Shown: positions 6,212 through 56,429, numbered from the stretch's first letter. The stretch is DNA of 64,000 nucleotides from Marsupella aquatica (GCA_973895155.1 OZ316899.1:12244834-12308833), one strand, 5' to 3'. Made by a program: numbers and translations. Notes: generated by a model not told the origin, from the letters alone.

Positions 6212-6304
6212 GCACTCTACATATCGTAGAGGGGAGACATGTGCGTATTTGCCTGGGCAGAATACACCAGGCCCTAGTACTAACCGTCGCATTTACACGA
6301 GTAA

Positions 6305-9300
6305 ATGCCCGTCACTCGTTCTCAAGCAGCTTACTTGAGGAGATTGACCAGCGAACGAGAAGGTGCGACCACAACAAGCTCCGATTCTTCGGGCTCAGAG
6401 GACTCGCAATCGCCCCAACAAATGAACATTCCACCGGGACCTTCGGGGTCCGGTTCGACCGGTCCTACTGCGGTTCCTGTGCCACCACCGCCACCACCTA
6501 TGGCAGCCGCCCCACCGATGGCCCGCGCTGCCCAAGCTCCTCCATAAATATCGCAACGATCGCGGTTTCATTATCGACCTTTCAAAGGGCATCATGGGGA
6601 TGATCCGGATGAATAGTTGGATGAGTTTGAAGCCACTGCTAAGGCTAACGGGAAGACGCCATTAAGTTAACCGTCCTCCCCGGAGTGATGCAGGGAGAAG
6701 CTCGTCCATGGTACAACTCGCTGCCACCCGGGACTACATGGGCACAATTCCAAGCTGCGTTGCTGCAAGAATTTTGTGCTATTGGATCCGAGCAGCGCTC
6801 GCTATTAAAGATCAGCCAGCTTTGCATGGGAAAAAAGGAGTCCCTGCAAAAGTTCATTCAGAAGTTTCAGAAACTTGCTGCCAAAATACGGCCCAGGCCT
6901 GGTGACGCACTCCAACTTACATGGTTCCTCCATGGTTTGCCCACGAATATGCAATTCTGGGTGCGCCAGAATAATCCAATTTCAATGCAAGCAGCCATAG
7001 CGTGCGTCAAAACCTACCGGGAGTCCACCTATAACTCCCGGCGAAGACAGCGGGCACGCCGCAAGAAGGGCAAGTACGAGACCTTCAGTGACAGTGACTC
7101 CGAATTAGACAATGAGAAGAAGAAGAAACGCAAGAAGAAGAAGAAACATTGTTTGACCTTGTCCAGTTCGGAGACTGAATCTAGTTTGGATTCAACTTTG
7201 AACAGCGGGTCCTCCACCTCCAGCTCATCAGGAAGTGATTCGGAGAGTGAGAGCCAGAGCAAGAAGAAGAAAAGGCGGGTTAAGGAGGGGAAAATCAAAT
7301 CTCGTATTCGCAGAACGATACCCGATCCAAAGGCTGCCAAAGCAGACAAGCTTAACAAAATCACGGATCGCCTCAAAGCACTATCAGTACATCTCGCGGA
7401 AAAGCCGGTGGAGAAGAAGAAGCCATCTGAGATTTGAGCCCATGCGTGGTGTTCAAAGTGCTTCCAATCCGGGCATGTCGTGCAAGACTGCCCAAGATGG
7501 AAGAACCGAGTTCACCAGGTGGACTTAGATGATGTCGACAACCCGGGTCCTGAAGTGGAGTCCACGGAGTATTTCTTTGAAGACCCTCCTGATTCGGTGT
7601 ATCAGATTTCAATGGTGGGTCCACGTAACTTAGCAGGTAGAACTGCATACCCCTACCCAAACAATGGCCGAGGCTTCCAAGTTATCAGTAACCCTAGCAT
7701 TCCTCCTAAACCAGGGATTTGGCGATCCCCGGTTTGTTACAACTGTGAGAAACCAGGCCATTTTGCGAGGGAATGCACAGAACCAAGACGCCAGGGGGAT
7801 GGCCGTGGCACGCCACTTTGTCAAGTCTGCAAAATGGAAACTCATTCCACGGCCAACTGTCCATTGGTAATGGCCGCTTGAACAAATGCAGCAAGACCAG
7901 CCCAGGGCGGACCGGCCACGAGTGATGCGGTCGTCCAAATGATTGCGGTGGAATGGCAAGATGACAACACCGAGTGGGTGAATCTGGTGGACGTGGCGGA
8001 ACACCCTAATCCATCTGACAAGGCTGAGTGCTATCGTGTGTCAACAAGAGCCGAACGGAAGGAAGAGAAGTAGGAGGAGAAACACAGGAAAAAGCAAGAT
8101 ACTACTCCGGTGCAGCCAGCGATAGATATACCCCCAGAGAAGGATGATGACTACCGACGGGACGACCCGAAGCTATTTTTCCCCCGCATTGAAGAATTGG
8201 TAAAGAAACAACTGGAGGCCTACAAAGCTCGGGAATACCAGAAGGCAATCGATAAGGACATCAAAGCAACCGAGACCGCCCGACGACAGGAGCAAGAAAA
8301 GCAAGATAAGCAAGAGGAAGCCAAGCAATAGCCGAAGGAAGAAAAGAAGGAGGACTATGATATTAAGGAAGACGTGAAGAGTTGCCCGGTTATAGCAACG
8401 GTAGGACAACTGCTGCAAAACAATCCATAGTACAGACGGCAACTGAGGGAGTTGCTTATGGTCGACGACGGAGACGACTACCCCGAGTTCGGATCGCGGA
8501 TTGCAACATGATATGCGAGGACCTGGGAGCGCCGGACATCTTGATTGAAATTAATAATTGTACCATCAAGATGGTTCTTGTAGACGGAGGAGCGGGAGTC
8601 AACATCATGACTGAAGAAACGTCAATCAAGTTAGGATACCTCACGTATCAACCCACAGCCCGAGCTATCAGATTAGCAAACGGGGCAAGGGTAATTCCAT
8701 TGGGCACGCTTACACGGGTACTCACTCTGGTAGGAGGGGTGGAGTTCTATCTCAACTTCCTAGTCATGAGGCCGGTTCGGCCCTCCTCTTATCCGGTCCT
8801 CCTAGGCAGGCCGTGGCTGTACGATGGCCGTGTGGTCACGGATTGGGGAAAGAAGGAGCTACGGTTCGGGACACCCACAGTACGGGTATCATGGGCAATG
8901 GATGATTATCAGGGCGAAACCCCACAGGGACCTGAGGAATATGATTCGGAGACCTCGGAGGAAGGGGAACTCAACATGATTGAACTCATCTCATCCCTGT
9001 CCGAGGAAGATGTCTTCGGAGTTGAGGCAACCCGCGAAACACATCTCCTGAATTACCCAAAGGCTGCTATTGAGCCCACCCCGAGCACCTCTACTGTCCG
9101 AGATGAGGAAACGCAAAAACGACTCATCGATACGGAGGACACGGCTCCAGCTAAGTAGGGAGCCGATGCTACTTCTACCAGTGCAGAGCCTCGTGACCAC
9201 GAACCAGCCAAACAACCGCCCGAGGCCGAAAACCCGAGACCGAGACATAAGAAACGAGTCTCCTGGGACCCGTCCATCCCGCAGTTGGAGGAAGTAACTC

Positions 9301-12282
9301 CAATCCCGAGACCAATCCCGGTTCCACCCATGTACGGAGGAGTTCGGTTAGCTGAACTTGATGCGAGCCTGGACCCGAGCTTGCGGAACCAGGTTGAAAT
9401 CATCAGGAAGAAGCACTACCAGAAGTACACCATTGGGATGGATAAATTGTTTAACCTGGGCCACGCTCTGACGGGGGAGGCGGAAAAATCTATCCAAGCT
9501 CTGCTCAAGGAATATGAAGATGTGTTTGCATGGAGCCATCACGATTTAACAGGAGTCTCCCCCGAGTTAGGAGAACACACGATCGATTTGAATCTGGGGG
9601 CCCATGCAGTACGGCAGCGACAACGTTGCATGAACCCGAGGTACTCCATCTTAGTGAAGGAGGAAATTGATCGTCTCCTTGCCGCAGATATCATCTACCC
9701 GATAATGGCCAGCGACTGGGTCTCTCCCATCGTGATTGTACCAAAAAAGGGAGGAACGGACGGAAAACCTAAGATCCGGATTTGTCAGGACTATCGTAAG
9801 CTGAACGACGCGACCCGAAAAGACCATTACCCGTTACCATTCACGGATATGGTTCTAGATATGGTAGCCCGAAATGAAATTTATACATTCCTTGACGGGT
9901 ATTCGGGTTATAACCAAATCTGGATTCGCCTCTCGGATCAGCTCAAAACAACGTTCACTACGGAATGGGGGACTTTCGCATTTCGGAGAATGCCGTTCGG
10001 ACTGTGTAACGCTCCGGCCATGTTTCAGCGACTCATGATGAATATCTTCCATGATATCCTACAGGAATTTCTGGAGATATTTATCGATAACTTCGCCATC
10101 TTTGGAACTGTCGCCATGCACCCCAAACACCTAAGACGTACATTACAATGATGCTGAGAGGTTAACCTCAAACTACATCCCGCTAAATGTTTTTTTGGGG
10201 TACAGGAGGGAGTGTTACTCGGGCATCGTGTGTCCAAACGGGGTATCGAGGTGGACCAAGAGAAGGTCGCGGCCTGGATGGCGGTGGTGTTCCTTGTAGA
10301 TCAAAAAGCGGTACGATCCTTCTTGGGCTGTGTAGGGTATTACCGTCGGTTCATTAAAGACTTTGCTAAAATAGCGTTGCCCTTGACTGAGATGATGAAA
10401 AAGGACGCGATGATCGAGGAGACAGATTGCTTTCGAAGAACTCCGTAAAAGACTCACCACCGCACCTATCATGGTCACTCCGGACTGGAATAAGGAGTTC
10501 CACGTGTATGTCGATGTGTCAGGGTTCTGTATTGGATCCGTGCTCAGTCAACTTGATGAGGACGGACGTGACCACCCCATCTACTTCGCTAGCCGTCAAT
10601 TATTCACAGCCGAAAAGAATTATTCCCCCACTGATCGAGAAGCTCTGGGAATAATCTACTCGTGTAAAAAGTTCCGACACTATCTGCTAGGCTATAAGGT
10701 CATATTCCACACGGATCATGATAACCTGAAGTACATGGTCAACAAAGCGGACGTGATAGGACGGATAGCCCGGTGGGTGCTACTTCTCCAGGAATTTAAC
10801 TACAAAGTTTGGGTTCGGCCCGGAAAGGCACACCTCAATGCCGACTTCTTTTCAAGGCTGGACGGCGTACCAGTCGATCAGCCAATTGATGATATTTTTC
10901 CGGATGAGGAGTTGTTCCACGTAGGGGCGGGGACGCCAACGTGGTATGGCTCAATAATCACCTTCCTCTTAACAGGCCACATCCCTGACGGCATCAATCA
11001 GGAAGCCGCCGCTGTGTTTCTATGGAAAGCCGGGCCTTACGTCATGGTACAAGGTCACCTACATAAGGAAGGAGTTAATGGGAAGTTACGATGCTGCTTG
11101 GAGTATAAGGAGACGCTTATCGTGATGCGGGCCTTGCATGAAGAAGAAGCTGGAGGCCATTTCGCGGCTATCACGACAGCCCGAAAGATTCTGGACTCAG
11201 GGTATTGGTGGCCTACGTTGCATCGGGATGTACAACGCTTCATCAAGGGCTGTGACCTGTGTCAGCGGGCTGGGGCCCCGAGACGAGCTCATCATCACCC
11301 TCTCACGTCCGTGCTTCCATTAGCACCGTTCAAAAAGTGGGGTATTGATTATATCGGGCCATTTACTCCCGTTACCCAAAGACGAAGATGCAGGTACATC
11401 CTGCTAGCTATTGACTACTCCACCAAGTGGGTCGAAGCACGGGCTACGGTGAAGGACGACGCCGCAACCAGCGCCAGGTTCTTATATGAACAGATTTTCA
11501 CCCGGTTCGGACCACCCTTAGAGTTGGTAAGCGACCGTGGAACACACTTCCTCAATGACACTATAGCCCAGCTTACGGAGCGTTACCTAGTCAAGCACCA
11601 CAAGACTACCCCGTATCATCCTAAAGCCAACGGGATGACAGAGAGAGCAAATGGTATCATTGGGAAGATCCTCAACAAAACTGTAGCTACGCACAAAACG
11701 GATTGGGACGATAAGTTGTACGCAGCGATGTACTCGTATAATCTAGCTTACAAAACTACTACGAGTCACAGCCCGTACTTTCTCGTGTTCGGCCAACATT
11801 TGTTGGTACCCGTCGAGTTTGAAGTACACACTCCACGGGTCAGTATTCGGGATCGCTTACCTGAATCTGAAAGTTTGTCAGACCGAGCTTATCAGATTGA
11901 AGCCTTAGAAGAGGCACGGCTACTAGCAGCTCAACACGCCGTAATGAAGCAGGCAACTTCCAAGAAACAGCACGACAAAGGACTACGGAAGGTCGACGTC
12001 GTGATAGGCGATCTAGTCCTTCTGTACGATAGTCGGTACATGCAGTTTCCAAGGAAGCTTCATACCCGTTGGTTAGGGCCCTTCCTAGTCAATCAGATCT
12101 ACCATAACGGATCTTTGGAGCTTCCGACGTACGCCGGCGATTTACTCCCCACGCGAGTCAGTTACGATCGTGTAAAGAAATACCACCATCAAGACAACGA
12201 CGCCGAGAGTGATGTTTGCAAGGATGCTTCACAATTAAGCAGGGAGCTATGTGACGCCGCCGGTACGGCGAGTAATGAGTAA
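6305..12282 (+). pseudogene. gag-pol: Gypsy gag-pol polyprotein (Gag, three zinc knuckles, protease, RT, RNase H, integrase with GPF module)
   Basis: MPVTRSQ start, capsid ARPWY..W..F, CCHC x3, LVDGGAGVNIM, WVSPIVIVPKK/DYRKLN/LDGYSGYNQI/MPFGLCNAP, YVDVS/YFASR/TDH, H..H..C..C, WGIDYIGP, SDRGTHF, NGMTER, WLGPF. No chromodomain and no archaeal-type RNase H seen. Confidence 0.95.
12237..12246 (+). promoter_or_regulatory. Polypurine tract of A1
   Basis: AAGCAGGGAG followed by CTA and the LTR start TGTGA. Confidence 0.7.
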
Positions 12283-15200
12283 TTCGGTCTAAACCATGCT
12301 TAGCACGCGCGTTAGGGGTATCTTAGGCCACTATGATTAGCATAACGACAATATTTAGGTAGCCATTATGAGTAGGAAATCATTAGTCAATAAGAGGAAT
12401 TCATGTTCGGGCTGGCGGCGCGTCGCCATTCGCACGCCCGAGTTATGAGCGTGGAGGGGCCCCTCCCTCGGGTCCGTATAACAAACTTCGGGAGGCGTCC
12501 ACTGACACGCGGTGACTCAGACCGGCGGAGTGGCCGGTACACTACAAGCGTGAACGATTCAGCCTATTGGCAACGAGGAGATGTTGGGGGATTGACAAGC
12601 CCTCAAGGTATAAAAAGGGAGCCGACCCTTTGTAGTGCACCAGTCCATCAGTCCATGCGCCAGCTTCGACCCCAGCTCTCTCGTTCGCTCTTAGTCACCA
12701 CTACTATCTCCTCTGAATGTCACACACGATCCTCTCTAGTTCGGCCATTCAATTCTGGACGCAGTTCCTATCTATCGGAAGACACTTGGCCGACTCATTG
12801 AAACACGCCAACCCGCACCGATACAAAATTGAACGCGAGTACGAGAGAGCCATCCGCCTAGCAGGACGACACCACTACATCCTTAACTTTGACTACCCAT
12901 CTCAGAGCAAGCTTTACCGACCAGCAGAGGTATCTGGGTACTTCTTCAACGGAGACAAATATATCGGTTTCTGGGAAGCATTGCTTTGGCTTCCGGACGA
13001 GGTCTTCAATATCCTGGGTAGATTGACTTGCAACGACATCACTTCGACCACATCCCTGCTCAGGTTTGGGCTATCATCAACAGCAAGTCCAGCACTACCT
13101 GTTCGACAAGATCGTCTGCACTTGCTTTGGAGAACTTCTACCAGCACCTGCAGAGCTTCATGGGAACTAGACCCGCAACCGCCGGCGCCGGCCCAGTCAA
13201 CCCCATACCCGTACCCGCACCAACGCAGACTCAGACTCAGGCTCAGGCTCAGCTTCAGTCTCAGTCTCAGTCTCAGCCTAGCCAACCCCCACCGCTGATC
13301 GGCCCGCCAGCAGTACAAGTACGCTCCATCATCAACGTTGTGGACCTTAGCGACGACGACGAGGCTACCCCACCCTTGCTCGGGCGGCCCAGAGGAGCAA
13401 ACACTTAGGGGGCCGACACTACATTATCCCCTCCCCATGCTCGGACCCAAGGAGCGGCTCCAGCAGACAACACGGTGACCGTGGCCGCCCCGGGCCCAAT
13501 ACTAACGGTGGTAGCACTACCTATGCCCGATAGAGAGGATGGGGAGGTGTCACCCTCCCCGAGCCAGTCACGGGGGAAGAAGAGGAAGGAACCCGCCACT
13601 GCATCCAGGTTACCATTGGCCACGGTAGCCATGGCCAAGGTGACAATGCACCGCATGGGGGAAAACGTGCATAAGAACATCCTCCATCCCAATCATGCGG
13701 TGTACCTGAAGACTCAAGGATTCGAGCACCTCGCCTCTCTCCCTTGGAACACTTGCAAGTACTACGGGGAGGACATGACGGAATTCGTCAAGAATTATGA
13801 TGACGCACGTCAACATACTCGGCTGCAGGGAAGGAATATGTCCCTCACAGAAGAACGGCTCAAGATGATCTTCGGATTACCCGAAGGTGACCATCAAGTC
13901 GAATCACGGGCTCCCGGGGGCAAGGGAGCCAAGTACCAATCCTCGAGTTTTCCCTCAGAGGGAGCAGTGGACAACGGGTTTGTGATGAGGACCTGCCTCA
14001 TCCCCAAGATAACTGAGCGACTGGAGTTCCAAAGGTACGCCCTCCACATGATGGAACCCCGGGGGGAGATCTCCGCCGCCCAGGTTATCCAGGTCAAGAA
14101 CTATCGACCTAGGAAGTGGGCGTCGTACTTTGCTAAGAAATTCCATGAAGAGATGGAGCGGCAAAGGAAGACGATGTACATTAGCGGGAAGGCGTATTTC
14201 GCTAGCCACATCGAGATCATTCTTGAGTGGTACGCTCAGTTTGATCGACGAACCCTTCCCCGTGTCAACGTTACAAAGCTGGTCCTAGCTAGGTGGGTTT
14301 CCCGGCCTTGGAGAGACGGCCCCAACCCAAGGCCCGAAGTCCAGCGGACATGCAAGCTTCACCCACCCCACCTCCACAAGTAGTTGTAGTCATAACCGAG
14401 GAGGTACCGGATGGGTCGGTTATCGCAACCGTAGATGCGATCCAACAGGCCGGGCTAAGTATAGAAGTCAGTACAGCGGAGGCCTTACTCAAGCCCGGGT
14501 CTCCCAACGACCCACCGGTGGCTATTCCGGAGCGCCGGACATTGCTGCAGGAGGACACTCCAGCCCCTTCCAACATTACGTCCCCAGGGCTGGATGTCAC
14601 TGCCCCGGCCCCCGCGCGTGTTGACGTCTGCCCGTGCCCAACTCTGGACAGGCACAACCTGGACCACCCGGAACTCTTCATACCGGGTACATTTCTGAAC
14701 GGGCTTTTGGGAGATTTCTCTCATCAAATTTCCCGGGATACCGGGGAGTTCATGGCCCGAAAGGTAGCCTGTTTCTTCAATCAGGAGTTAGTTGCCATAG
14801 TAAAGGCAGGTCGGGCCCAGTCAGAGGCCCTTCAAAGGATAGAGCGGTATCGGGTGGAGTCCGTATACTTAAAGAATGAAGTTGCAGCTCAAGAGGCTGA
14901 GCTTCTGCAACTACGACCCAAAGTTGCAGCCACCGATGAGTTGTTAGCAAAGGCGCACGCCCTTACCGCCCTAGCCGAGCAGGCCAAAGCTGGGAACGAG
15001 GCCGAGATTGCACGACTCTGGAACCAGATTGACAGTTTGAAGAATCAAACTGTCATCTGGCAGAAAGACCTGGAGGAGGCCGAAGAACGGGCCCAGCGAG
15101 ACACTGCGGAGATAGCCATGCTACAGGCCGAAGTGGCACGGCTCCAAACCAAAGCCGAGAAGCAGGACCAGCTGGCGGGCAAGCTGACGAGCGATGCCCA

Positions 15201-16257
15201 GCAGCTGGAGGAGGCAGCGGAGGAGACAGACGCGGCGAAGCGAGAGAACAAATCTCTGCTAGACCAGGTCCAGCTCCTCAAGGCAAACAACGACAACTTC
15301 GTAAACAACGGGATGGCCGCTCCCACTCGGGCGGCTCCGGCAAGCGTGCCAGGCATTAGCGGCGGAGTAGGAATATAATAGGGTTAGGAATAGCTAAGTC
15401 AGGCAATTGGGACAGGCACCTGCCTTAGTTACAACAACACTGCCATGCTGTCCAGCCTGCGTAGATTAGGATCTTCTAATAAGACATAGCCATTTTTTGG
15501 CTTGACAGTCAGATTAGTTAGGACCTAAGTTAGCGAATCTTCGGCCGGGAGGACACTCCGTTTCTTGGCCCTTAGTATTTAGTGCACCCCTCGGTAGAGG
15601 CAGGGGGGTTTTTAGTCTCAGAGTTGGACATCCGTGGTATGGGCAGGGAGTCCCGACCTCTGGGAGTGAAAGAGTACCAAGGGGAGGGGGTAGGACTAAG
15701 CTCGTCGGGCGAGTGCGGAGCCGGGCTCCATTGTAGTGTACTCCCTCGGCCTTGAACCTGTTCATTCTGGAGCTGTCGGGTCAACCAAGTGTACGCATAT
15801 GTCCCCTATATAGTAAAATCCTTTCCCATTATTTCCTTCGTGTAAATCGAGATTGTATGCTTGTGCGCGTGTATGTGTGTGTGAATCTCGTGTATAGGTG
15901 ACAACGCCGGGCCGAACGCACTACCCTGAGTCGTGCACGGGGTGCAGCTTGCAGGTATGTGGTTGCGAGCATGGGTTGAGGACCTGTATCATTGAATCCG
16001 GATCAAAGGCGGACAACACGAAGGCTTAGAAGTCCTTAAGCCGGGGTCGATCCTGTTATTGACTAAGGTACATTCCGGCGGCGGAACACAAACCATACCT
16101 AGGAGATGTCCGTATCTAACAGTAGGCGCACTTAGCGCTAGTTTACGTGAATTAGGTGCATTACGTTCTTCCCTCCCTGCCCGAACCCTCATATTTACGA
16201 AGGATGTGCCCGTTTAAAGCTGAAGCCCGAGTTAAGGCCAAGGCTGATGACGTGACA
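12250..16257 (+). repeat. 3' LTR of A1 (4008 bp)
   Basis: Direct repeat of 2206-6180, followed by TSD ATTGC. Confidence 0.97.
12717..15378 (+). pseudogene. LTR-encoded accessory protein (family A), 3' LTR copy
   Basis: ORF pieces 12717-13298, 13028-13408, 13475-14383 and 14293-15378; about 885 codons once repaired against the 5' copy. Confidence 0.85.
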
Positions 16258-20748: not shown

Positions 20749-22500
20749 ATGTTCCTTAGATCACCTGTTGCATTGGCTAAAAAATTGACAGCTTTGAGCA
20801 GGGTTTTTCTGTGGGGGGCCAACAGACTTGGAGGTAAGAAGATCCCACTTGTGGCTTGGGAGAGACTATCTAGGCCTAAGGTTGACGGTGGCCTGGGCCT
20901 TAAGGAATTTAGATGCCATTCTGCTGCTCTCTTAAGTAAATGGTTCACTGGAGCAATTGATCATCCTGAGTCGGAATGGGCACTGATGTTTGATGAAAAT
21001 TTGAAGCTAACATCCTGGAGGAATTTCAGGGTTGTTCGTAGAAATCAGTACTCAATGAAGGATAAACTACTTTTGTGTTCACCCCGATCCTTTGGCAATC
21101 TCCTGTACACTGGACAGATCTGGACGGCGTGGGAGCAGGTGAGGGAAAATTTGATCTTCTGCCCTGGAAATGGTACCATCCCAGGGCACTGGAGTGTGGA
21201 AGATCTCCTGAGATGCTTGCACTCTTTCTATAACTTACCAGAGGAAGGTAGAGGAGAGATGGTGAAGACATGTGGTAAATTGGGAGTACGCAAGGTGAAA
21301 GATTTCTGGTCTGCGACTGACTGTGCATGGAAGGATCTAACACAACGAATGCAGCGTTTGAGGAATATAGTTGAGTCCGACAAAGATAGTTGTCTTAGGC
21401 TCTTTTGACTATACAGGGAACTGCTTACAGTGTAAACATTACTGACTCCCCAGCTGGTCTTTGGAGATGGTTGGATTTGGATTCAAAACCTATAGCTTTT
21501 GGATTACCTAATCACAGGGTTTATGAGTTACTGAGAACTAAGGGCTCCAATTTCTTTCGACTCAATAGAATCTGGGATGAATCACTGTCTGAGTTGGAAT
21601 GGAGTGGGATTTGGATGGTATTGTGGACCTCTAATCTCTCTTCCCAGGCGAAGACCTTCATTTGGAGAATCCTAGCACAGGGACTCTTCTCTGGTTCTAG
21701 GGCACTTTGGATTAAGAAATCTGACGGATTTTGTGTGCTATGCTTTGGGGAGGTCGAAACATTACCTCATCTTTTCTGTCAATGCAGATATGCTAGATAC
21801 TGCTGGAGTGTGGCCGGGGAGTGGATGAATGGACTGATCATCGGCCGGGATCGTGGTCTGCTCAAATTGCTATTGTCATGCAGGGGAAAAGTTTCACTGA
21901 GTACTCTTCGTGCTTTCCTGATATACCAGATCCTTTGGAGCATCTGGTTGGCTAGGAATGAGCAAACCTTTGATTTGACGAAGAAACAAGTTTTTGACAC
22001 GATCTCTATCATTTCGGGGGCCTTGGATCACTTGTCTACAGTGGCAACTTCCTCCAGCTCTAACCGGAAGCGGTCACGTCTAATTGGGGCCACTGCCTTG
22101 TTAGAAGGGGAAAGGACCGGATTCTGAGGAATGATGCCAGGGTCACATTAGCTTTCTGAGCACTTGCGCTCTGTGCATTAGCAGTGTGCTGCACGCTGTT
22201 TTTCTGGTGCTGAGGGATGCTATCTTAGTTTGTTCTATAAGTGGATGTTGCTGACTTTATTAGTATATCGGTCTTTACATGGAAAGGAGCATCTCTCCTT
22301 CCTTTTAGTTTTGCTTTACTTGCTTCTGCCCACGCTGCTTTGAGCTGTGGCTCTTTCCTGGTTCTGAATGTGAACCTCTATGTACTTTTTCACCCCTTCA
22401 TGGGCTTTATGATGCCCCTGGGCCTGCTTGTTTCCCCATCAGTGGGGTTCACGCGGAGTAAAATTTGGTTAAAAAAATTAACTAAAAATAATAAAAATAA
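20749..22500 (+). mobile_element. 5'-truncated L1-type LINE (ORF2 C-terminus, 3' UTR, A-rich tail)
   Basis: FLWG...LVAWERLSRPKVDGGLGLKEF, zf-RVT-like FIWR...CVLC...ETLPHLFCQC, WSIWLARN; A-rich tail at 22471-22500. Confidence 0.88.
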
Positions 22501-25580: not shown

Positions 25581-26148
25581 AGAAAGCAAAGTCAAGGATC
25601 CAGTAGACAAGTCACATGTGGCGCTAGGTGGCCTTAGCAGGCTAAAGAATGTTGTTGTTGACCTAGGGTCAGATATAGTGGATTTGTTCAGATCTTTTAG
25701 CATCAGAAAGTAGGCAGCCTCTACAAGCAAGGGGTTTGAGGATGGTTGGTTCAATGAATTGTGTCTTCAATGATACTTTGTTTTGGATTGAGGCCTTCAA
25801 AGCCTAGTTTTGATTGTAATAGGATGAGCATTTTATGCACCGTATCTTTTGTCACTTTGTATACTCCACGATTCAGTCTCTCCTTCCTCTGTTGGTCAAT
25901 ATGTGAGCTCACGTATCTTGCATAATGCAACAATGATCGTCAGCCCTAGTGGTCATTAGAAGTTTGTTCCTCTCATTCAAAGAGCTGTGTGGTTAAATTC
26001 TAATCGGTCATGTTCTGTCATTTTGTATGGCAACAACTGAAACTTAGCTTGATGTCATGTAATATTGAAAAATCAGAAGGTAACTAGCTCAATGTGGAGC
26101 TGAAGCGCCAGTGATTACAAAGCCACATTTAGTTGCTCTCAACTTGTG

Positions 26149-29100
26149 TGTCGCGCCCCTAACCCGGGCCTTAAATCCAGTTTAGCTCCATGGGGTGACC
26201 TTGACCACCAGTAGGGGTGAGGGTTCGGGCAAGGAGGTGTGTAGTGGCCTCGATTGGCCCTAAGTCGGGCTAAGGCAATATACTTACTGGTATAACACTC
26301 ACGCAACTCATACTAGTCATAGGTATATTTGTTTTCCACCGCTGGAATATTCCCACAGTTAGTGACTCGGACTAACTCCCAGCTTGGGGCTTTCAAGCCA
26401 TCGATGCGATAGAACCTTGTGACATGCAATGGGTGGCAATCCCTACCATTAGTCCACACCCGGTACGTCCCTTGAAATGGCGCCTTTGCTCAGACAAAGC
26501 ATACACACAACACCAGTTACTCGTGGAAACATTAGAGGGAAAAGACTACATTTACTCAGCGAAGAATCAGTTTACATATATAGTTGACTCGACTTCTAAG
26601 GGGGTCAGCAGGCCCAACGGCAGTCGATGCCCAGTCTCTACAAGGCCCCGCCCCGCACTTGCCCAGCAAGCTCGACTCTGGCTCTCACTCCTTGGTGCGA
26701 TATGCTTTGTCTGAGCAAAGGCGATAACTAAGCCTTCTCCCCCTCCCACAGCGGAAAGGGAAGCCTAAATACTACGGTTGCGGAAAGGAACCGGAAGATA
26801 CTACCTTCCGGGGTAATGCCTACTGACTAACTACCCTCTAACTAGCCGGCCGCACTCCTCTGACCGGTTGACCATCGACAACAAGGGCGCTGACCGGAAT
26901 GGCAGCAGCTAAGTCTACTGACCAAAATCTAGTCCGTTGATGGACTCTATCCTACGTTGGCTGATCCTAACTGATCCGGTCCTAATTCTTCCTACTGTGC
27001 CACTAATCGGTGCCTAATGACAACTATTCTGTTGTTACGCCTAACCAAAAGATGCCGCTGACTGAACCGCCTTGCGCGGCGCCTGCTTCCACCCTTCGCT
27101 AACCACCTCTTACGTGCGAGCTGTGGTCAGACTAGGGTTTGTCCCCCTGTCGGGGCGAGACCTCGAGCCGCCTTGATCAGAGGTGGGCCCAGGTCTTCCC
27201 CGCTGGAGGACGAGCAGGGTAATGCAATCCTGCAAGGCCTTGTTGTCCCGCACAGCCTCCTCCGCCTCGTTTGCAGCTTCATCAACCTTTGTCTGGAGCC
27301 GTGCTACCTCCAGGTTGAGCTGGTCGATGGAGTCATGATGGGTCTGGTCTTGCGCCAACAATTTATCCCGTTTGGCGGAGAGACTAGCCACCTGCTGAGT
27401 TGCTTGTAGGAATTGGTTGTTGAGGTCGGTCAGGCTGGTAACCTGAGCCGAGGATTCCGAGCGCAACTAAAGCACGATGTCGTCCAGCTTCTTGAGATCC
27501 ACTTGCGCCCTGCTCAACTCTTGGGTTAGTCCGTGCCGCTGTTCAACGGTGCGAACTAACTCCTCACAGCGGGTAGTGGCCTCCTCCTCGAGGTGTTCTA
27601 CCAGCATTTGGAGGCGCCCAATCTCATTCCCCCTCGCCATGAGTTCTTCTTCCAAGCGGCTTACAATCCGTGGTTGGTGCTCTAACATGAAGAAGGTTGG
27701 TTGCAAGTACGCCGAGACTTGTTGTCCAATGTACGTCGCCAGCTCCCCTGACAGAGTCTGACTAAACTTCTGGACCAGGTCGTAGGCCATGGTCCCCGGG
27801 GCTACTTGGTAGTCCTCCATCCTCTCGGGTACCGATGGTTCCTCGGGCGGGGTGGTGAGCTCCTCTGTAGTCTGCACTGGGGAAGGAAAGGTTTCCTCAG
27901 GTGGTGGAGGGATTGGGGGTGGCTGTACTGCGGGTAGCGGAGGCTTGACGGAAGGGGGCGGCGGAATTTCAGCAGGAGGTGGTGACGGAGTACTAGTCGG
28001 GGCCTCCGGCTTGGGGTTTGGCTGAGGCACGGTAGTCCGCTCGCTCGGGGATGCCTCCCTTGGAGCGGGGGTGACATTAGTCGGGGCTGAGGTGGCCATA
28101 TTCTTTCCTTTGGCCTCCCATCGTGCCTTGTACCAGGTGAGGATGATGGCGATATGACTTCCCAAGTAAGTCTTCCCCCCAATAGCCATACCTCCCTGAG
28201 CCCGCTTAAGCTCCCCCGAGAACCTTCGGTAAAAGAATTGGGCCCAGTTCCGCCGTTTGTACTATTCCACCTACATGATCATGCAAAGGGAGATCTCGGA
28301 TCGTGGCTCAATCATGTGTAGGGTAGTTCGTATGAAGTTAAGCCGCTCCATGTAGATTAAGTTGGTGCACGACCCCTGCTTGTATCCGTTGTCCGTCTCA
28401 CCTTCGGGTTTGAAGTGCCAAGGTGTATACTCCTTATCCCAAATTTGGAGTTCAACTGGCACCGGCCCGGTTGGCAGGCAGAATATCTGTGCCATCTGAT
28501 GCTCTGTAAGTGATAAGGTCTGTCCTGAAACCTTGGTGGTTGATGCGTCAGTGTCGAAATTGGAGATGAACTCACAAATCTCCTTGGGCCCGGCCACGCA
28601 CGGTCTCCATAGCAAGTGAGCAAACTGCTCCAACTGATGCTCCTTGAGGTAGTCTGCGTGGTCAAGTTTCTTGATTGCGATCCAGACTACCTCGGGGACG
28701 CAGATTACCTGTAATAAGTTAGACTTGGGATTATCCGGGGGCCGTTGGGCCTGGTTGGCCGGGGGGTTGGCCGGGGTAGGTGCACGAGCAGCGTTGGTTC
28801 GCGTTGTTGATTTGGGGGCCGGCGTCGTCCTTGCCTGCTTACGAGAACGCTGCTTGAGATGCGGACTAACTCGCTCGGAACCCGAAGAACACTCGGTGTT
28901 GTTCACGGGACGGACTTGGGACTGGGCTGAGGGGCTGGTGGGGTCGGTGTATCCATATCCCAGTTGAAGGCGTTGGAGCTTTCCCCGAGGAACGTAAGAT
29001 TACGCGCCGCTTCCCATTGTCTGCTGATGTCTTCTTGGTGCTTTTTGGCTGCGATTTGCTGGTCTAGGTACCCCGGGATCTTGTCAAACTCTGCCTGAGT

Positions 29101-29950
29101 AAGCCGCTGGCTGCCCTTCAGCCTAAAGAACTTCGCGGGGACTTCAAGAATCGCCTTTGCTACCGATCTAAGCCCTTCCTCGCTGAGATATAGCTCGGTG
29201 ATGTAGTCCCACAGCTCGTTGTAGCTAGAATCCCTAGTGATAGTTGTCTTCTCGTAGTTAACCTGCGCTACCTTGGCCACCAACTTTGTGTATCTTCTTT
29301 CATAAGCGGCTTTCTCGGGACAAGAGTACCAATAAGTCTCGGAGAACTTAGCACCTACCTCGCTAAACAAGGTCCAGAATCCCAAGGCTATAAGGGTCAT
29401 ACTAACCTTTGTAGTCTGGTTCGTCGAGTCCGCGTTTCCGTTGTTTGGTCCGCTTACTGGTGGAGGCCTTCCTTGCCCTGACTAAATCTTGCCACAACCT
29501 GCTCTTATCCCTTGATGATCTCCTTGTAAAGGTCAGCTTGATTCGAGCAAGAAGGCGAGAGAATGGCAGCGTCCGCAAATTTTGAAAGGTAGAAATGATC
29601 AAATGGCCCGTAGCGCCATCGACTTTGCTCTTATGGAGGTGCCAGGGTGAGCTTTGAGCGTGAGTGGGCAAGGTCGTTCCGGTCGTTGATGATGAGCATA
29701 AGTCAGCGTCTTGGTCCAAGCGTGATTCTTCTAACGGATTTTACTCCGCCGCCGCCACCGTACCGCGGTCGAGCGTAATAACCCTCTACTTTAATTCGTA
29801 ATCATCCGATCAACCAACCTACTCCTAACCTATTCATAATGGCAAAGACGGCTATTCGTGCTATTCTACGCTACGGCTACGGTCCTAATGATCGTATAAG
29901 ACCTAATCTATGACCTGCGTTCGGTTAAGTGACACGTTACCCGTGTCACA
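26149..29950 (-). mobile_element. Solo LTR, Gypsy family B (3802 bp)
   Basis: TGTCGCG...GTGTCACA termini with perfect TSD TTGTG (26144-26148 / 29951-29955); no gag/pol inside. Confidence 0.92.
27110..29400 (-). pseudogene. LTR-encoded accessory protein (family B)
   Basis: Collinear ORFs 29400-28903, 28906-28271, 28189-27467 and 27466-27110, homologous to the family A LTR protein. Confidence 0.85.
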
Positions 29951-30602
29951 TTGTGCCAACTGAATATGATCATCAGCAAGATCATTAGCCACAGTTACCC
30001 TTAGTATGGGGGAAATTTGAGCTGTGTGAATGCCTCAGGTTAATTTAGTCCTCTAATCCTCTAATAAAAGAAGCTATTCTGCATGCACTACCATCTTGGC
30101 CCATCACATTCTCAAGTCATTTTTGTACTGATGTTGTCCTCTAATCAAAGTCGGAAGGGTTTTGTTGTTGTTCTTTATGGACCACTCTGCTTTACACAAC
30201 CAATTTTGGCACGACAAAATAGTAGAAAATAGCTCCAAGAGGTTATATTACACTTGGGAAAAATTAAGGCAATGGTTGAACTAGATAACACACAGTTGGT
30301 GAATTTTGAAGTTTCTTCAGGGGTGGTTGGGTGCAGACAAAAAATGAACATTCCAATGCACTGGACAAGCTTATTGATTCCATTTGTCCGACAGGTTGCC
30401 ACCAGCACATGTTAACAACATACTATTCATCCTCAAATGAAATAAAGGTGGAAAAGAACTTATAGCCTTACATTAAATTTAGGAATGTTTTTACAATCTC
30501 ACTGTCTAGGAGCCTCGTGAAATGCTAAATAACTAGCCTACCCTACTACAATGACCTTCTATATGTCTTCATGTACAGCATGATCCATTAGTTTTACAGG
30601 AG

Positions 30603-33600
30603 CTACACCTGCAGCGATTCATAAATCGCTTCTAAAGTGTCTGAATCTAGTGTGTAAAATCTAGCACCTCGTCCCTTGCCTCCCTTGGGCACCTCACATG
30701 GTGTCAAACCAAATTGAATGTGAATTACTTCCCCTGGATGGCAGTGCTGAAAGGAGAAGCAAAATTGAAGATGAACTTGTTTTTTGATCCTGGATATGGT
30801 TGGAACCACCTTCCCTTTAAGGCCATGTCCCCTGCCTTGAATTGTACCTTGTACCCATTAGTGAAACTCTTTGTGACTGTGGAGCACCTCTTCACACTAA
30901 TAAATGTAGAAATCTACATTATCTTCATTTGGTTGACTTGCACAACATGCATAGAAATCTCCCAATTGGACACATTCTGGTAGAGAGAAGTTGTCACGCA
31001 GTCCTTCGCCCTCTCCCATGTTCTCCACATCAGCTCTGACATCTGCCTGCAATACCCCTTTGACCATCTCTAGGCAATACTTGCCTACCCATTCCTTGTT
31101 CTCACAATGCATTGGATCTTCATCAACACAAGCTACACAGAAACAACTGAGCTCCCAAACTTGCAACAGTGTTGACAGACTCTTACTAAATCCATCAAAG
31201 CAGTGCAAAGATCTACAATCCTTGATTGGATCACAATCCCACTTCTTCTGTCTATTTACAGTGCCAACAGGAATTTCCCAAAATATACGTCGAACAAGCT
31301 GCACATCACCATACTCCTGCAATTGACGAAGGGCAAACTTGTCCTTGCAAAACTTCACCACATCTGATGCACCCTCTAGACGATGACCATTCATGCCTTT
31401 TAGTTACTCAGTTGCAAGCCCGGTCTTAATGTGGCCGCCAAGAGCATCCTATTAAAGCATACAAGGAGCACAAATTAGAAAGTTTCTTACTTAGACTGCA
31501 AGTTTGGTCATCCAATTCCAATAGATATGTCACTCATTAGAAACCAACTAAGGCATGCATAGAATTGGGTGTAGAGAATGTTCCCTATAGATACTTACAG
31601 CAACACCCTTCCCATGGCCAGAGGCATGGAAGAACCATTTCATCCGTGCGCCAAACCGGGAGTAGTACCTACTAACGTAGTAAAATGGTCTGCAGGCCTT
31701 GAACTGAGATGCCGCCCCATCAGACCAAACCCAGTGTTGATCAACATGAATTCCCTTATTAGCCATCCACTCCCAGTGCGCATCCGTGTAGTGTTGCACA
31801 AAAAGAGTGTCATGACAATTATCATCACTAATGTAGAAATGGTAATCTGCTATAATATCACGAGTTTTATCAGCATTATGTGCTGCTTTCACAGGCCTAC
31901 CCATTGCAGCTTCAAGTGAATCGGCATCTTCCCTGTGTCTATAGGTAACATGGATTAACAATGTCACTTGCTTACTGTCCCAATGTTGACTCTCAGTCTC
32001 ATTCTGAGGCAAAAAAGTGTAATTTTTGGAGAAATCTACTGAAGAAACAATTGTCCCTCTTGGAAATGTTTTTAGACATTGTCTAAACTGTTGTGATTGC
32101 CAATGGGCTCCAAAGTTATGCACAATAAATGTCTTCATGGTATACATTATTGCTCTCTTAAAATCAACCATGGGAGTTTGCTTATAAACAATCCTCAATC
32201 GCCTATACTTCTTTGTTGCACTCTCTTCAGCCCCTTTCTTTTTTTCTCTCTTCTGTTGGGCAGTGTCATCCAGGTCACGATATTCAAATGTCTGCCATTT
32301 GATCATTTGATTTTGTGCAGGGTCCAACTCTTGAGTGCACCAATCCAACTTCTCTACTCCACATTCTTCACATTCACCCATAATACAGGCATTTTGGTGC
32401 CACTCTGTCTCAGGTAGTCTATGACAAAGAGATTCCTCTATCCAACCACGAACTGAGGTTATGAACTTTGTAGATGCCATACAAGAAGAGATGGGTACAA
32501 CACCCAAGGGTCTACAGGTATCACATTCACAAGGACAGTCCTTAATGTGCTGGTGCCACCTGAATTTGTCAATTGCCTCTTTGAGTAAGTCCATCTCCAC
32601 ATGTTGTTTGCAGCAACAAACATTGATGTCTTTCATCTTACGAACATAATATGGCTTGAAGTATATAAATGACCACATCCCTACAGACACCCCATTCTGC
32701 TCCCTTGTGCACCAGTCATGAAATGCTGAAAAAAATTGGAACTGCACATATACAAGACATACATTATTTTTGTTAGAAAGACTGGTAGGAACGGATACCC
32801 TCAAATATGCAGTCACAAAAACCCATGTATGTGGGTACTACTACTTCCTGAAGGACTTCAGTTCTGCCTGCAACTACAGTCCTTCAGTAAGGGTCCGAGC
32901 TCTTATTGGAAGACTCTACCAGGAGAGGTGAAGGACTAAAGTTCTTAGGGAAGGAGTAGAATCAATCTGGAAGGACTCAAGTACTCAATGCACTCGACTT
33001 AAAAACTTGGAACAGGAGTCCTCGGAAAAGGAGTAATGTCCTTGGAAAAGGAATAGAGTCCTTGGAAAAGAAGTAGAGTCCTTGAGAAAGGACTACAGTC
33101 ATTGGAAAAGGACTGTAGTCCTCAGAAAAGGAGTAGAGTCCTTGGAAAGGAGTAGAGTCCTTGATAAAGGACTATAGTCCTCGAAAAAGGAGTATAGTCC
33201 TTTTACACAGTCCTTTGGAAGGACTATTAAGGTCCTTGGGGAAGGACTACAGTCCTGACCATAGTCCTTCATCAAGGACTGTTAATAGTCCTTGACTAGG
33301 GACTACTAACAGTAGTCCTTTGTCAAAGGACCATAAGGAAAGACTTTGACAAAGGACTAAAGTCCCTAGTCCCGTACATAGTCCCTCCTGAAGGAGTTTA
33401 CCCCTTTGTCAAGGACCAAACTTCTTCCTAAAGGACTATATACAGGACATCAGTCCACAAAATTTATTCAAATCTTACCTTTACAACACACTGGGTACTT
33501 GTAGCGATCACAATGGCTGACTAACAAGGAAAACTACTCATCAAGGAGTGGAGATAAGAGTTCAATCAAATATGGCAAAATGGACATAACAGTTACATCA

Positions 33601-39927: not shown

Positions 39928-42900
39928 TGTGATGCCTAGCAAGGAATCACTAGGCCGATTAAAGTGGTAAAACCGGGAGTGTACCTTGAAAACACATTAG
40001 TATAGTAACAAAACAAGGAAAATATAAACAATTAAGGGTGACTATGGAACCCGAGCCGAGGCCGAAAGTAAGGATGCCACGGCAAGGAACGCGATTAGGG
40101 TTAGGGCATGCTAAGTGCTGGCGGCTATGGGTAACCAACGGGAAGGGAGACTAGGAAAGGGGGGGTAAGGACCAATCACAAAGAATGGCGGCTCATTTGC
40201 AAGCATGAACCAAGCAGAGGATTGCAAGAAGCCAACTACTGTCAGTTGCTTAGGCAAGCACTCTGGGCGGGAGCAGATACCTAGTATCAACTCAAGGAGG
40301 GCATGAGCAACTTCAATCAAGTTGCTCATTTTTGGGGATGCTTGTTCAAATGGGCAATTGAGTACATTGGGACCTACAAGGACGAAGAATTGGAAAGGGC
40401 AATTGAGTACATTGGGACCTACAAGGACGAAGAGTTGGAAAGGGCAGCACGAGAACGGCAGGAGCTTGCTCATTTATGGGAATTGCAGAAGTCTGCCTTC
40501 CTTGGAGGGGAGCTCATCAAGGCCAAGTTCTTGTGGACTCCTACTCCCAATCAGCTTGACGACCTTCTGTTTTGTGAGAACAAAATCATCGGCATTCGGG
40601 AAGCCATCAACCGCTGCAACGACGTACATTGGGACCTAAAGGGTAGCACGGAGGTGTGGACAAAGGCAACCGTGCTTGGAGAAACATCCACAGCAGCCGC
40701 CATGAAGAGGAAAGGGCCCAACAATGAAGAGGCCACCCCCGCAAAGAGAACAAGGTCCGCGGCACCAAGGAAGCCAGCTAAGAAAGGGAGGAGGAGGAAG
40801 GGGGAAGCCGAAGAAGAGGAGGTCAACCCAATCAATGTCATTCCAATGAGGGATGACACTTGGAGGGGCTGGGCGTCGACCCTCCCAGAGGAAGTGCAAT
40901 TAAACTTTGCATGAGAGGAGGATGCATGCTTTACGGCTATGCAGACTCGGAAGTACCAAGGCTTCATGGCCGGATCTGGCTTGGAAGCCTTCGTGAAATT
41001 ACCATGGCTGAAGCCGGAGGTGCCGGATTCTGACTTGTTGGAATTTGTGGGATCATGGGATCCCAAGACAAATTCCACAAGGGTGTATGGGAAGGATTTC
41101 TATCTCACTCCCCAGGTGATTTTCGAAGTATTTGGCTTGCCGATGAGCAATAAGACCAAAGTAGATACCCGGAAGACCTTGCCAAACAAGGAGTTCAGAT
41201 TGTTCCCAGGGCCATCAACAAAGAATGGCTTCTTCCGGAACACCTGCACCAACCCGCACATTGGTGAGATGATTGATTTCTTGCGGGTAACCATGCACTG
41301 CAACTTGCCAAGACCAGAGATCGGAAAGGCACAGGTCTACCTAGCGGAAAGGCACAGGTCTACCTAGCCTGATAGCCAAGCCGAGACTACAACAGGTACC
41401 TTCTCACCCAACTAAAGAAGATCTTGAAGGAGGAACAATAGGTGATCGGCCAGGGAAGCGTGTCCTGGCTTGGCTATCACATGCCGTTGTTGTGCCGGTA
41501 TGCCCGGAGTCAGATCTTTGCCCAGGTACTTCTCCTGTAGGCAAGGGCACTAGAGGAGGTTCCGGAACAGAGGCCGACAGTAGAGAAACCCAACCAGCCC
41601 GGCGGTCCTACGATCGAGCAAGTGTTTAGGCCGAGGACGGAAAACTTGCCGATGCAGCAACCAGGCATGCAGAATCTTCTAAAATTGCTGGAGAAGGAAA
41701 AGAAGGTTGTAGCGGCAACATCACCGGTATAGGACACTGCTCAAGAGGCAGGCCTAAGCCAACTCACAAGGGAAAACCCCTTTACCAGAGCCAAGGAAAG
41801 AAGGAGGCCGAAACACAAGCCGGGGGTTCGGATGTATGTGGGAGCCGCAAGTCCAAAAACCGATGGAGAGCAGCCCAAAGCTCATGGTCGCAATAAAGAG
41901 AAGGAGAGGACAGCCTGGAAGCCGGAGGACGAACCACGACCCATATGCTGTGTTTGGTAGGAGGCCACATTTGCAGCAAGATCAAGAGAGGAGCGGGGGG
42001 ACCCGGTAGTCCAAGCCGAGAGGGAGGTGGTGGAGGACTACGACAATGACGACTCCGGCTATGGGTTGGACCATCATGTCCCAAGAGTGAGGACATGTGG
42101 CCCCTTCATCCCCACGCTTCCTAGAGTAGTTTGAGGGGACCCAAACCAACAGAGCAGCCCCGAGTCTCCCCCACCAGATGTCGCTCCCCCGAGATTTGAT
42201 GGGATAAAACAGACGGCACAAGAGTTGTAGGAGCAACTCAGGGAACAAAGAGGAGGAAACCCTGGCCAAGGAGAAGGATTTACCTGGGGGAGAATGGCCA
42301 GAGGACATCCGACTGCTTGTAGAAAAACAAAGCAGAGGGATTCCAAAGGGAGATGTTGGAAAAAAGCCTATTGGAGGAAACCGTGGCTTTGGAGAGGATG
42401 AAGAAGGACAAAGTCATCCGTTGGCTTAGGGAGAAGGAAGCCAAGGTAGAAGACCTGAAGGCGGCCAAGAAAGCCCAAGATGAGCTGCGGATTAAGAGGC
42501 ATGAGCTCAACATCATGCAGGGGCAACTGGATACTGCTCAGTCTGATAACCAGATTATCAAGGATAAACTGACTTGGACCCAAGGGGAGTTGGCCGACGC
42601 GGTCAAGGAAAAGGAGAAATGGAAGCGGGAGCTGAAGGACGTAGAGGAGGCCCACATAGCAACCAACAATCAGGCCATGGCAGAAACACAGAGGAAGGAG
42701 AGGGAGCTAAAGGGGGAGCTTGAGGATCTCCACGGAGCCCTTGAGCAAAAGGAGTCCAAGTTAGGGAAATCCTATCAAGGGATTATTGTGCTATAGCAGG
42801 AGCTTGCATCCTTGACGGCCAACTTCAAGGCCGACCTGCGTGAGAAGGACGATATGCTTGATCAGACTTCCGCCAAGATGAACCCGATGGAGTCTGAGGT

Positions 42901-46182: not shown

Positions 46183-48168
46183 TGTCACATTGTCAGCCTA
46201 GGCCTTAAATCGGGCTTCGGCTTAGACAGACACATTCTTCGTAAATATGAGGGTTCGGGCAGAGAGGGAAGCCCGGAATGCACCTAACCACGTAAACTAG
46301 CGCTAAGTGCAACTACTATTATTTACGGACACCTCCTAGGTATAGTTTGTGTTCCACCGCCGGAACGTACCTTAGTCGATAGCGAGATCGACCCCGGCTT
46401 ACGGGCTTTTAAGCCTTCGTGTTGTCCGCCTTTGATCCGGATTCGATGATACGGTCACTCAACCCGGGCTCGCAACCACTTACCCGCAAGTTGCACCCCG
46501 TGCATGGCTCAGGTAGTGCGTTCGGCCAAGCGTTGGCACCCATACACGAGATTCACACATATGCAAGCATACAATCTTGATTTACACAAAGGAAATAATG
46601 GGAAAGGATTTTACTACATAGGGGACATACACGTACACTTAGTTGACCCAAAAGCTCTCGAATGAACAGGTCCAAGGCCGAGGGTGTACACTATAACAGA
46701 GCCCGGCTCCGCACTCGCCCCTTAGTCCTACCCCCTCCCCTTCGTACTCTTTCACTCGCAGAGGTCGGGACTCCCCGCACATACTGCGGATGCCCCACTT
46801 TGAGACTAACAAACCCCCCCCCCGCCTCTACCGCAACCGTGGCCAAGGGAACCCAGATACGGTTGCGGGTTCCTTCCTCTTCCTTCCCCGGGACTGATTT
46901 CCGAGGTGACTGGAAGAGGGGGACACTTCCCCATCCTCCCTATCTGGTGGCGGTAGTGCTACCGCCGTGAGTATTGGTATCGGGGCCGCTAGAGTCACCG
47001 TGTTATCCCCTCGGGCTTGCTGGAGTGGCGCCGGGTTGTACGGCGACTGTAGAGTCGTACCCCGCGGCCATCGATTCAGAGGGGGGTGAGCCTCCTTGTC
47101 TTCGGAGCTAATATTCACCGCATTCACCATGGATTGTACTCAAAGAGGTGGTGCGACCGGTGGCGGGGATCGGCTTGGCTGAGGCCGAGGGGGTGTGGGT
47201 GCGAGTACAGGCACGGGCTCGGGTGGGCCGGCACCGGTCGTTGATGGTATAGTTGCCATGAAGTTCTGCAGGTGCCGGTGGAGGTTTTCCGAAGCAAGTG
47301 TAGATGGCCTTGTCAACCGGGTAGTGTTGAACTTGCTGTTGATGATAGCCTGGACCCGAGCGGGGATGTGATTGAAGTGGTGCCGCTGTAAGTTGATCAT
47401 GCCTGGGATATTGAAGACCTCGTCCGGAAGCCAAAGTAGTGCCTCCCAGAAGCCGATATATTTGCCTCCGTTGAAGAAGTACCCTGATATCTCTTTGGGT
47501 CGATAAAGCTCGATCTGGGACGGGTAGTCAAAGTTAAGGAGATACTGGTGGCGGCCTGCTAGGCGGATGGCTCTCTCGTATTCGCGTTCGATTTTGTATC
47601 GGCGCGGGTTGGCGTGTTTCAATGAGTCGGCCAAGTGCCCTCCGATAGATAGGAACTGCGTCCAGAATCGTATGGCCAAACTGGAAAGGATTGTGTGCGA
47701 TATTTAGAGGAGATAGAAGGCGACTAAGGCTGAGTGAGAGAACTGGGGCCAAAGCTGGTGTGTGAACCAAAGAACTGGTGCCCTGCAAAGGACCGGCCCC
47801 TGTTTTATACCCTGAGAGCTCGTCGGTTGCCCGACGCCTCCTTGTCGCTTACAAGCCAAGCCTTTCATGCTTGCAGTGTACCGGCCACTCCGCCAGTTTG
47901 GGTCAGCGTGTGTCAGTGGCCGCCTCCCGGAGTTTGTTATACGGACCCGAAGAAGGGGCCCATTACACGCTCACAACCCGGGCGTGCAAATGGCGACCCG
48001 CCGCCGGCCCGAACACGAATGCCCCTTATTGACTAATGATTTCCTACTCATAATAGCTACCTAAATATTGTCGTTACTCTAATAATTACGGCCTAAGATA
48101 CCCCTAACGCGCGTGCTAAGCGCGGTTAGGCCAAATCACTCATTTCCTGCTGTACCAGCGGCGTCACA
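46183..48168 (-). repeat. 3' LTR of A2, internally deleted (1986 bp)
   Basis: Matches 56430-60337 minus a 1921-bp deletion joined at CTACC (46828-46832). Confidence 0.93.
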
Positions 48169-56416: not shown

Positions 56417-56429
56417 AAAACAAAGGCTA

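Follow-up and report, generated by a model that had tools for sequence, protein, structure and literature searches.

A gene with a predicted VANC-type core in a probable solo long terminal repeat of Marsupella aquatica

How does a unit that is flanked by a target-site duplication, and that shows no match to gag or pol, come to hold a whole gene? The question is raised by positions 26149–29950 of a 64,000-nucleotide stretch of Marsupella aquatica DNA (GCA_973895155.1, OZ316899.1:12244834–12308833; hereafter the window). An initial annotation, made from the sequence alone, described this unit as the solo long terminal repeat (LTR) of a second retrotransposon family and its open reading frame (ORF) as a homolog of the LTR gene of element A, a Ty3/gypsy element at 2206–16257. 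According to the analysis reported here, the most likely identity of the unit is a solo LTR from a Ty3/gypsy family outside the chromoviruses, with a 4-kb LTR and designated family B. The explanation that best fits the locus as a whole, with a probability of roughly 0.55, is a solo LTR with an LTR-borne accessory gene whose intact product, through a predicted core of the VANC/PMD type, would bind element DNA and counter host silencing.

A probable solo LTR with a full-length, broken gene

The family B unit is 3,802 bp long on the minus strand, running TGTGACAC...GCGCGACA, and was delimited by its ends, a step in depth, an end motif and the alignment of its 3' end. The ends are TG...CA on the minus strand without long inverted ends, and the 5-bp duplication TTGTG is read directly from the sequence at 26144–26148 and 29951–29955. 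As the initial annotation had stated, the four long frames of the unit contain no Pfam match to gag or pol. The 40 nt read on each side contain no primer-binding site (PBS) or polypurine tract (PPT); A and its relative A' have both.

The unit is assigned as an LTR because it combines a shared end motif, a layout collinear with the A LTRs and a depth step. First, a pattern search finds the motif TTCCRGCGGYGGAA at 26334–26347 (minus strand), 185 nt from the B 3' end; the corresponding distance is 169–171 nt in four A and A' LTRs and ~240 nt in C1, a family C LTR whose end is approximate. Seven sites occur in the window against 0.07 expected, and six of the seven are close to an LTR 3' end; as B, A' and C1 supplied the sequences for the pattern, it is the position and not the count that serves as evidence. 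Second, the gene of element A lies in sense within both LTRs, starting ~470–550 nt in and ending 850–960 nt before the 3' end, and the last 600 nt of the B and A 3' ends are alignable in patches. An AT-rich hexamer is found 436–451 nt from the 3' end in A copies and 434 nt in B (a TATA-like hexamer at 26577–26582, minus strand, of putative role), followed by TG-rich sequence and then by the conserved motif. Third, summed contig depth rises at both B ends in all four runs, from two studies; in run X2, for example, it is 4617–9181 in bins 26209–29519 and 66–366 in the flanking bins (300-nt bins; depth is not equivalent to copy number). These four were the holders that the run search listed; none was an RNA run, which carries no information on expression. 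The view of the unit as a duplication-flanked solo LTR is supported by these features, and the overall anatomy, a whole accessory gene inside a 4-kb LTR, is very probably correct.

The gene is encoded on the minus strand in the order N-terminal helical domain (N-domain; 128 aa, 29017–29400), linker, core domain of ~200 aa (28109–28720), and proline-rich linker with a coiled-coil-like C-terminal part recognized from sequence (27113–28108). Natural homologs of 623, 787 and 906 aa exist that are encoded in one frame, and the two longer ones show the same order. The B gene is full length, and it is broken by one frameshift and three in-frame TAG stops. The frameshift falls at 28906–28999, a zone in which the frames of the N-domain and the core overlap but are not in phase, and in which homologs P0021, P0023 and P0026 have one frame; two stops lie in the core (28271–28273 and 28262–28264) and one in the C-terminal part (27467–27469). 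The earlier statement that the solo LTR holds the whole ORF is correct as to length but not as to reading frame. Since it is broken, the B copy is a pseudogene that cannot give the full protein, and it is no shown trans-acting donor.

Homologs of the LTR protein were sought in several collections. A search among representatives gave 16 matches, of which P0002, P0013 and P0016 were dropped as unrelated repeat proteins; a word-index search passed 2 of 4424 candidates with alignment A2 and none of 117 with the B core among longer proteins. Four of the ten clusters that were looked up carry the name Calypogeia fissa. Apart from coiled-coil matches, Pfam gave no name to the LTR proteins. A metagenome scan with the B core confirmed none of 67 stretches, and no B relative was recovered from metagenome contigs.

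Inside gag of A', a 2.5-kb insertion (53325–55822) has the LTR-end motif at 53645, two patches 75–78% identical to the B 3' non-coding part, a 26-nt tandem array (55273–55447) and no core-domain match; judged by sequence, it is possibly a gene-less relative of the B LTR.

Homology, selection and possible exchange of the LTR gene

The B core is 36–37% identical to the A core (49 of 133 positions, or 37%, at an E value of 7e-28), and its alignment score of 336 compares with a maximum of 51 among 1000 shuffles. The N-domain score, 66 against a shuffle maximum of 54, is likewise reached by none of 1000 shuffles. All four peptide matches quoted in the initial annotation recur in these alignments, far beyond chance, and the outcome that would have spoken against homology, an insignificant alignment, was looked for and is contradicted by these values. 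The remark that the DNA is not obviously alignable is also borne out, B and A matching only in patches of 19–35 nt. Between families within this one genome, cores are 23–37% identical.

Pairwise dN/dS values (Nei-Gojobori) place constraint between lineages. The comparison of A with A' gives 0.06 for the core (confidence interval (CI) 0.03–0.13, with silent sites near saturation), 0.17–0.25 for the N-domain and 0.19–0.20 for the C-terminal part, and C1 against C2 gives 0.19; the controls are 0.09 for RNase H and integrase (RH-INT), 0.15 for reverse transcriptase (RT) and 0.21 for gag. The two LTRs of element A, whose divergence dates from after insertion, give 0.83 (core, CI 0.43–2.5), 0.41 and 0.80 (C-terminal part) when compared with each other, and the intervals all contain 1. 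For lineages that replicate the gene is of importance, and inserted copies decay neutrally. The long-term purifying selection that had been proposed is thereby upheld between lineages (0.06–0.25) and not after insertion, where dN/dS is ~0.8 and every copy in the window is broken.

At silent sites, A and A' differ more in the LTR gene (core 0.70, C-terminal part 0.62) than in pol (RT 0.31, RH-INT 0.46), and the excess in the core is significant (Fisher p 1e-13 and 3e-7). DNA identity falls to 59–77% at LTR positions 900–2940 and is 82–87% at both ends. The high silent divergence of the core and the mid-LTR dip in identity are the reasons for reading this as a cassette exchange; for the two elements compared, the sequences suggest exchange with a more distant lineage.

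Predicted fold of the core domain

The core is uninterrupted in the A 3' LTR (13631–14296, plus strand), and this sequence was used for folding. The model, from a 15-row alignment, has a predicted local distance difference test (pLDDT) score of 88. The top Foldseek match is the VANC21-DNA structure 9LNJ (E 0.031, probability 0.98, template-modelling score 0.54; next match at probability 0.02). With VIA, 9LNK is the sole chain among 48161 with Z of at least 5 (Z 8.4, root-mean-square deviation 4.1, 203 residues aligned; next 2.7). Atlas leads with a score of 0.90 point weakly to DUF1985 (13% of members) and PMD (20%); in Pfam, 15 members and 11 locus ORFs give no match to DUF1985 or DUF287, and PF10536 is likewise unmatched. 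The core is predicted to have a VANC/PMD-type fold. The N-domain model has a pLDDT of 84 and no clear solved match, which does not imply a new fold; the lowest Foldseek E value is 2.0, and the highest VIA Z, 5.8, is to helical bundles. A sequence search of solved structures returned coiled coils only, and a viral fold library gave no match at E 0.001.

VANC21 binds a short motif and strips methylation from its own family (PMC5735166, PMC10398659), and DUF1985 is contained in VANC proteins (PMC5735166). VANC has a structure similar to that of MAIN, and coiled coils are predicted to mediate the oligomerization of both VANC and the Athila domain (PMC13547354). MAIN and MAIL1 promote silencing (PMC5418596).

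Position of the gene in related elements

A scan with a pol alignment yielded 79 loci, and a core profile built with seven of the eight core-positive loci (a first profile had given five) finds the core in sense after pol in those 8 of 79. The pre-PPT motif, the PPT and the terminal TG precede the gene in four of the eight (L003, L011, L016 and L018), follow it in two (L001 and L020) and are not seen in the remaining two. L001, a circular contig, has the order pol, purine tract, 745-codon frame, motif and PPT, LTR of ~1 kb, and PBS; L020 is arranged likewise, which is the Athila-type internal position. In the four LTR-type loci the motif, the PPT and TGTGGGA come straight after pol, and then the gene. 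The inverted sequence TCCCACA closes the 5' LTR of L011 and L016 ahead of the PBS, and stop-free frames of 641 and 632 codons are present in L003 and L018. These internal and LTR-borne forms among relatives show that an LTR can expand from ~1 kb to 4 kb by uptake of a gene.

A simple shift of the LTR start to an upstream PPT was weighed and found no support, the motif before the A PPT matching that of the second, true PPT of L001; from this match it follows that the gene moved relative to the LTR start. A tree of LTR ORFs set against an RT tree had been proposed as a check and was run with RH-INT, using three window copies and 36 of the 79 loci, a selection made by identity to which distant rows were added; several labels, and the link of C1 to the pol upstream of it, are provisional. 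In the RH-INT tree all LTR-type rows form one clade (bootstrap 82) nested among internal-type rows, while the gene tree disagrees, as described below.

Two further observations concern the internal forms. L020 matches Transposase_32 weakly (E 2.5e-4; 21 bits, below the cut-off of 45), and no window protein matches it. L005 has an internal extra ORF region (2204–5098; 152 and 812 codons) that is weakly like that of L020 and unmatched by the core profile.

Working model and alternatives

Under the proposed model, the gene would have moved into the LTR from an internal site between pol and the PPT, as kept by L001 and L020. A long U3 would hold the promoter and the gene, followed by a short R and U5, and the gene would use its own TATA box and the poly(A) signal of the LTR. 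A TATAAA box lies at position 360 of the A LTR (2565–2570, plus strand), ~105 nt before the first ATG of the LTR gene, and at position 358–360 in the A 3' LTR and the A' 5' LTR; an upstream box is seen in A and A' and not found in B. Placement in U3 is probable. On this reading a young solo LTR would form a self-sufficient transcription unit making a protein that oligomerizes by its coiled coil and acts in trans on the element's own family, binding its DNA and keeping it active. Recombination between the LTRs of one element would have produced the solo LTR, in which the gene was retained on account of its place inside the repeat. The notion that solo formation leaves a trans-acting gene behind is in line with the layout where a copy is young, and trans action is plausible given the VANC-like fold; the notion fails for the present copy, a pseudogene. 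An anti-silencing or trans-activating role of the intact protein, as suggested by the fold model, has slightly less than an even chance.

Several observations weigh against this reading. The duplication alone is weak, given 123 TGT...ACA pairs with a 5-bp match in the window; a stricter end pattern is at chance level (1 observed against 2.1 in controls); and no full-length B-family element is seen. The fold was modelled for A and not for B itself, so that B is linked to VANC through its 36–37% identity to the A core. The Foldseek E value is 0.031 at 9–12% sequence identity, and the VIA Z of 8.4 barely exceeds the range that the tool states for common arrangements. No VANC-type clustered short motif was found, there being no enriched 6–8-mer in the non-coding parts of four LTRs (12 tests, all with P 0.35–1.0). 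MAIN and MAIL1, which promote silencing, have this fold too, and a fold by itself shows no function. None of the seven LTR gene copies in the window is intact, six having stops or frameshifts and the A' 3' LTR lacking the core; the dN/dS of ~0.8 between the LTRs of A is neutral-like; and B has no canonical TATA box before the gene. A second LTR is seen whole in none of the four LTR-type loci. Finally, the gene tree does not support a single origin: in it L003, L016 and L018 group with the internal-type genes of L001, L008 and L071 and not with the genes of the window. The grouping entails two changes (approximately unbiased test p 0.019, for a group named after the first tree was seen). The disagreement of the trees leaves two readings, a double entry of the gene into the LTR or a single move followed by replacement.

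The strongest alternative retains the same anatomy and assigns the protein to another step, such as chromatin tethering of the integration complex, nuclear import or particle assembly, instead of counter-silencing. No function has been demonstrated for the extra ORFs of the Athila, Ogre and Retand groups, for which a nuclear or an accessory role has been suggested (PMC7264820), and about half of the protein consists of an N-domain without a clear match, a proline linker and a coiled coil; the lack of target-motif clusters is also in keeping with such a role. Against this, the one solved structure that matches is that of an anti-silencing protein which binds DNA sequence-specifically, and the divergence of family cores (23–37% identity) and the apparent exchange between A and A' are what a change of VANC specificity predicts. 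This alternative is possible, at rather less than an even chance.

A second alternative, which is somewhat less likely still, concerns the transcript. Here the TATA box at position 360 would be the main promoter and the gene, lying in R or U5, the first cistron of the genomic RNA, similar to ORF1 of Ogre or ORF0 of Retrosat2 but slid into the LTR. The clearest TATA box in A and A' does sit at position 360, before the gene, and the downstream hexamer reads TATATA in just two of five A, A' and B copies. Against this, the arrangement would require a strong-stop DNA of ~3.6 kb, and in relatives the gene lies 3' of pol, next to U3, and not before gag.

In the strong form of the initial interpretation, selection at the level of the host or of the element family would maintain solo LTRs as functional sources of a trans-acting factor. 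The layout permits such working donors, and the stop-free LTR-type frames of L003 and L018 would suit them, but the B solo has four breaks, inserted copies decay neutrally and one solo was examined, which makes selective maintenance unlikely. Least probable is that the B unit is a separate non-autonomous or DNA element with a related gene, a notion suggested by the chance-level duplication, the unseen B internal region and the VANC-fold genes known from Mutator-type DNA transposons, and opposed by the fit of size, gene position, end motif and 3' alignment to true A LTRs and by TG...CA ends with a 5-bp duplication and no long inverted ends.

If the LTR-borne, counter-silencing model is true, each element has two copies of the gene, deletion to a solo LTR leaves a counter-defence gene behind, and cassette swaps between lineages change which family is protected. 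A gene inside the LTR alters what solo formation removes: the replication genes are lost, and a possible regulator stays until it decays. More tentatively, early-land-plant retrotransposons may have moved an anti-silencing gene of VANC fold into the LTR as a self-contained, exchangeable cassette, in which case the extra ORFs of Athila and PMD type might be an older form of the VANC system.

Comparison with known systems

Athila, Ogre and Retand elements commonly carry extra ORFs, which are described from the internal region (PMC6317226, PMC7264820, PMC3485330, PMC11728184). Those of the OTA superclade of Ty3/gypsy (Athila ORF1, PF03078; Transposase_32, PF20167; Ogre PMD, PF10536; Retand Transposase_28) resemble the present gene as sense accessory ORFs of non-chromovirus Ty3 elements (PMC6317226, PMC7264820, PMC11728184), and the internal position and weak Transposase_32 match of L020 add to the likeness. 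They differ in being described as internal, whereas the LTRs of A, A', C2 and B each enclose the gene reported here, giving two copies per element and one per solo LTR; the window proteins, moreover, match none of those Pfam families.

VANC21 and VANC6 of VANDAL DNA transposons (9LNJ, 9LNK) share with this gene the predicted core fold, a conserved domain combined with variable regions and a coiled coil, and divergence between families (PMC5735166, PMC10398659). Unlike them, the present gene is found in a Ty3 LTR and not in a VANDAL element, has 9–12% identity and an extra N-domain, and shows no tandem target motifs in the search made. The PMD proteins MAIN and MAIL1 and the Gypsy-encoded PMD-A are related through the atlas PMD leads and the fold link via VANC (PMC5418596, PMC13547354); here, in contrast, there is no PF10536 match, the location is the LTR, and the PMDs described in those sources are from angiosperms. 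A sense protein gene within an LTR is known from sag of mouse mammary tumour virus and nef of lentiviruses (PMC2664473), but these are animal retroviruses with LTRs of at most 1.3 kb and no homology shown, against ~2.3–2.7 kb of coding sequence in a 4-kb LTR. Element A may be comparable to the liverwort Tat lineage without an extra RNase H ('Tat Z2', PMC13468544), as its RT and RH-INT frames give no second RNase H match and most of its organism-named pol homologs come from liverworts; a term search of PMC13468544 finds nothing on extra ORFs or LTR length.

The literature search, which did not extend to subscription papers or Repbase, found no description of an entire gene enclosed by the LTR of a plant retrotransposon, nor of a VANC fold for a retrotransposon extra ORF; the element tables in PMC6317226 could be relevant here. 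ORFs in LTRs and internal extra ORFs of Ty3 elements are already known; the LTR-borne gene in plants and the link to the VANC fold are new here, within the literature searched. The role of plant Ty3 extra ORFs is a long-standing question (PMC7264820, PMC6317226), and the predicted VANC fold makes function directly testable.

Other elements of the window

The window is dense in retroelements. Element A (plus strand; duplication ATTGC) has the order gag, protease, RT, RNase H and integrase, with pol ending at the PPT, and no chromodomain match, as in non-chromoviruses. Its LTRs, at 2206–6180 (3975 bp) and 12250–16257 (4008 bp), are 94.6% identical, and the gene is broken in both. A second RNase H gave no match in the RT and RH-INT frames, the short broken frames not all having been scanned. 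The PBS is presumably tRNA-Asn-like. Among 120 pol homologs listed, 11 of the 12 rows named by organism are liverworts, which, with the Calypogeia fissa names above, points to a liverwort as the probable host. At 12215–12282 the pol frame of A crosses the pre-PPT motif and the PPT and stops inside the 3' LTR, leaving no 3' non-coding spacer. In both A (6181–6212) and L001 (7565–7595), the primer site is offset 11–13 nt from the LTR by a T-rich spacer that begins with TAG.

Element A' (46183–60337, minus strand; duplication GTATA) has a 5' LTR with a broken gene (56430–60337) and a 3' LTR from which the core is deleted (46183–48168), ~1.9 kb including the core domain having been lost at 46828. 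Family C is represented on the plus strand by C1 (39929–44503, with an approximate 3' end; core homolog at 40906–41364) and C2 (60544–62760, rearranged downstream; core homolog at 61467–62051). C2 directly follows a pre-PPT motif and PPT (60508–60543) like those of family A, although the cores of the two LTR families are only 23–26% identical. Inverted parts of a family C LTR after C2 (62744–63892) mark a rearrangement.

The observed/expected CpG ratio is 0.75–0.85 for the LTRs of A, A' and B and 0.53 for that of C1, compared with 0.32–0.38 in the flanks; age or coding content alone might account for the contrast. The start of the window (284–1937) is occupied by fragments of Ty1/copia integrase and RT, and a LINE zf-RVT fragment lies to the left of the solo LTR (21399–22127). 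A 20-nt tandem array at 32930–33221 adjoins a 429-codon minus-strand frame (31548–32837) without a Pfam match.

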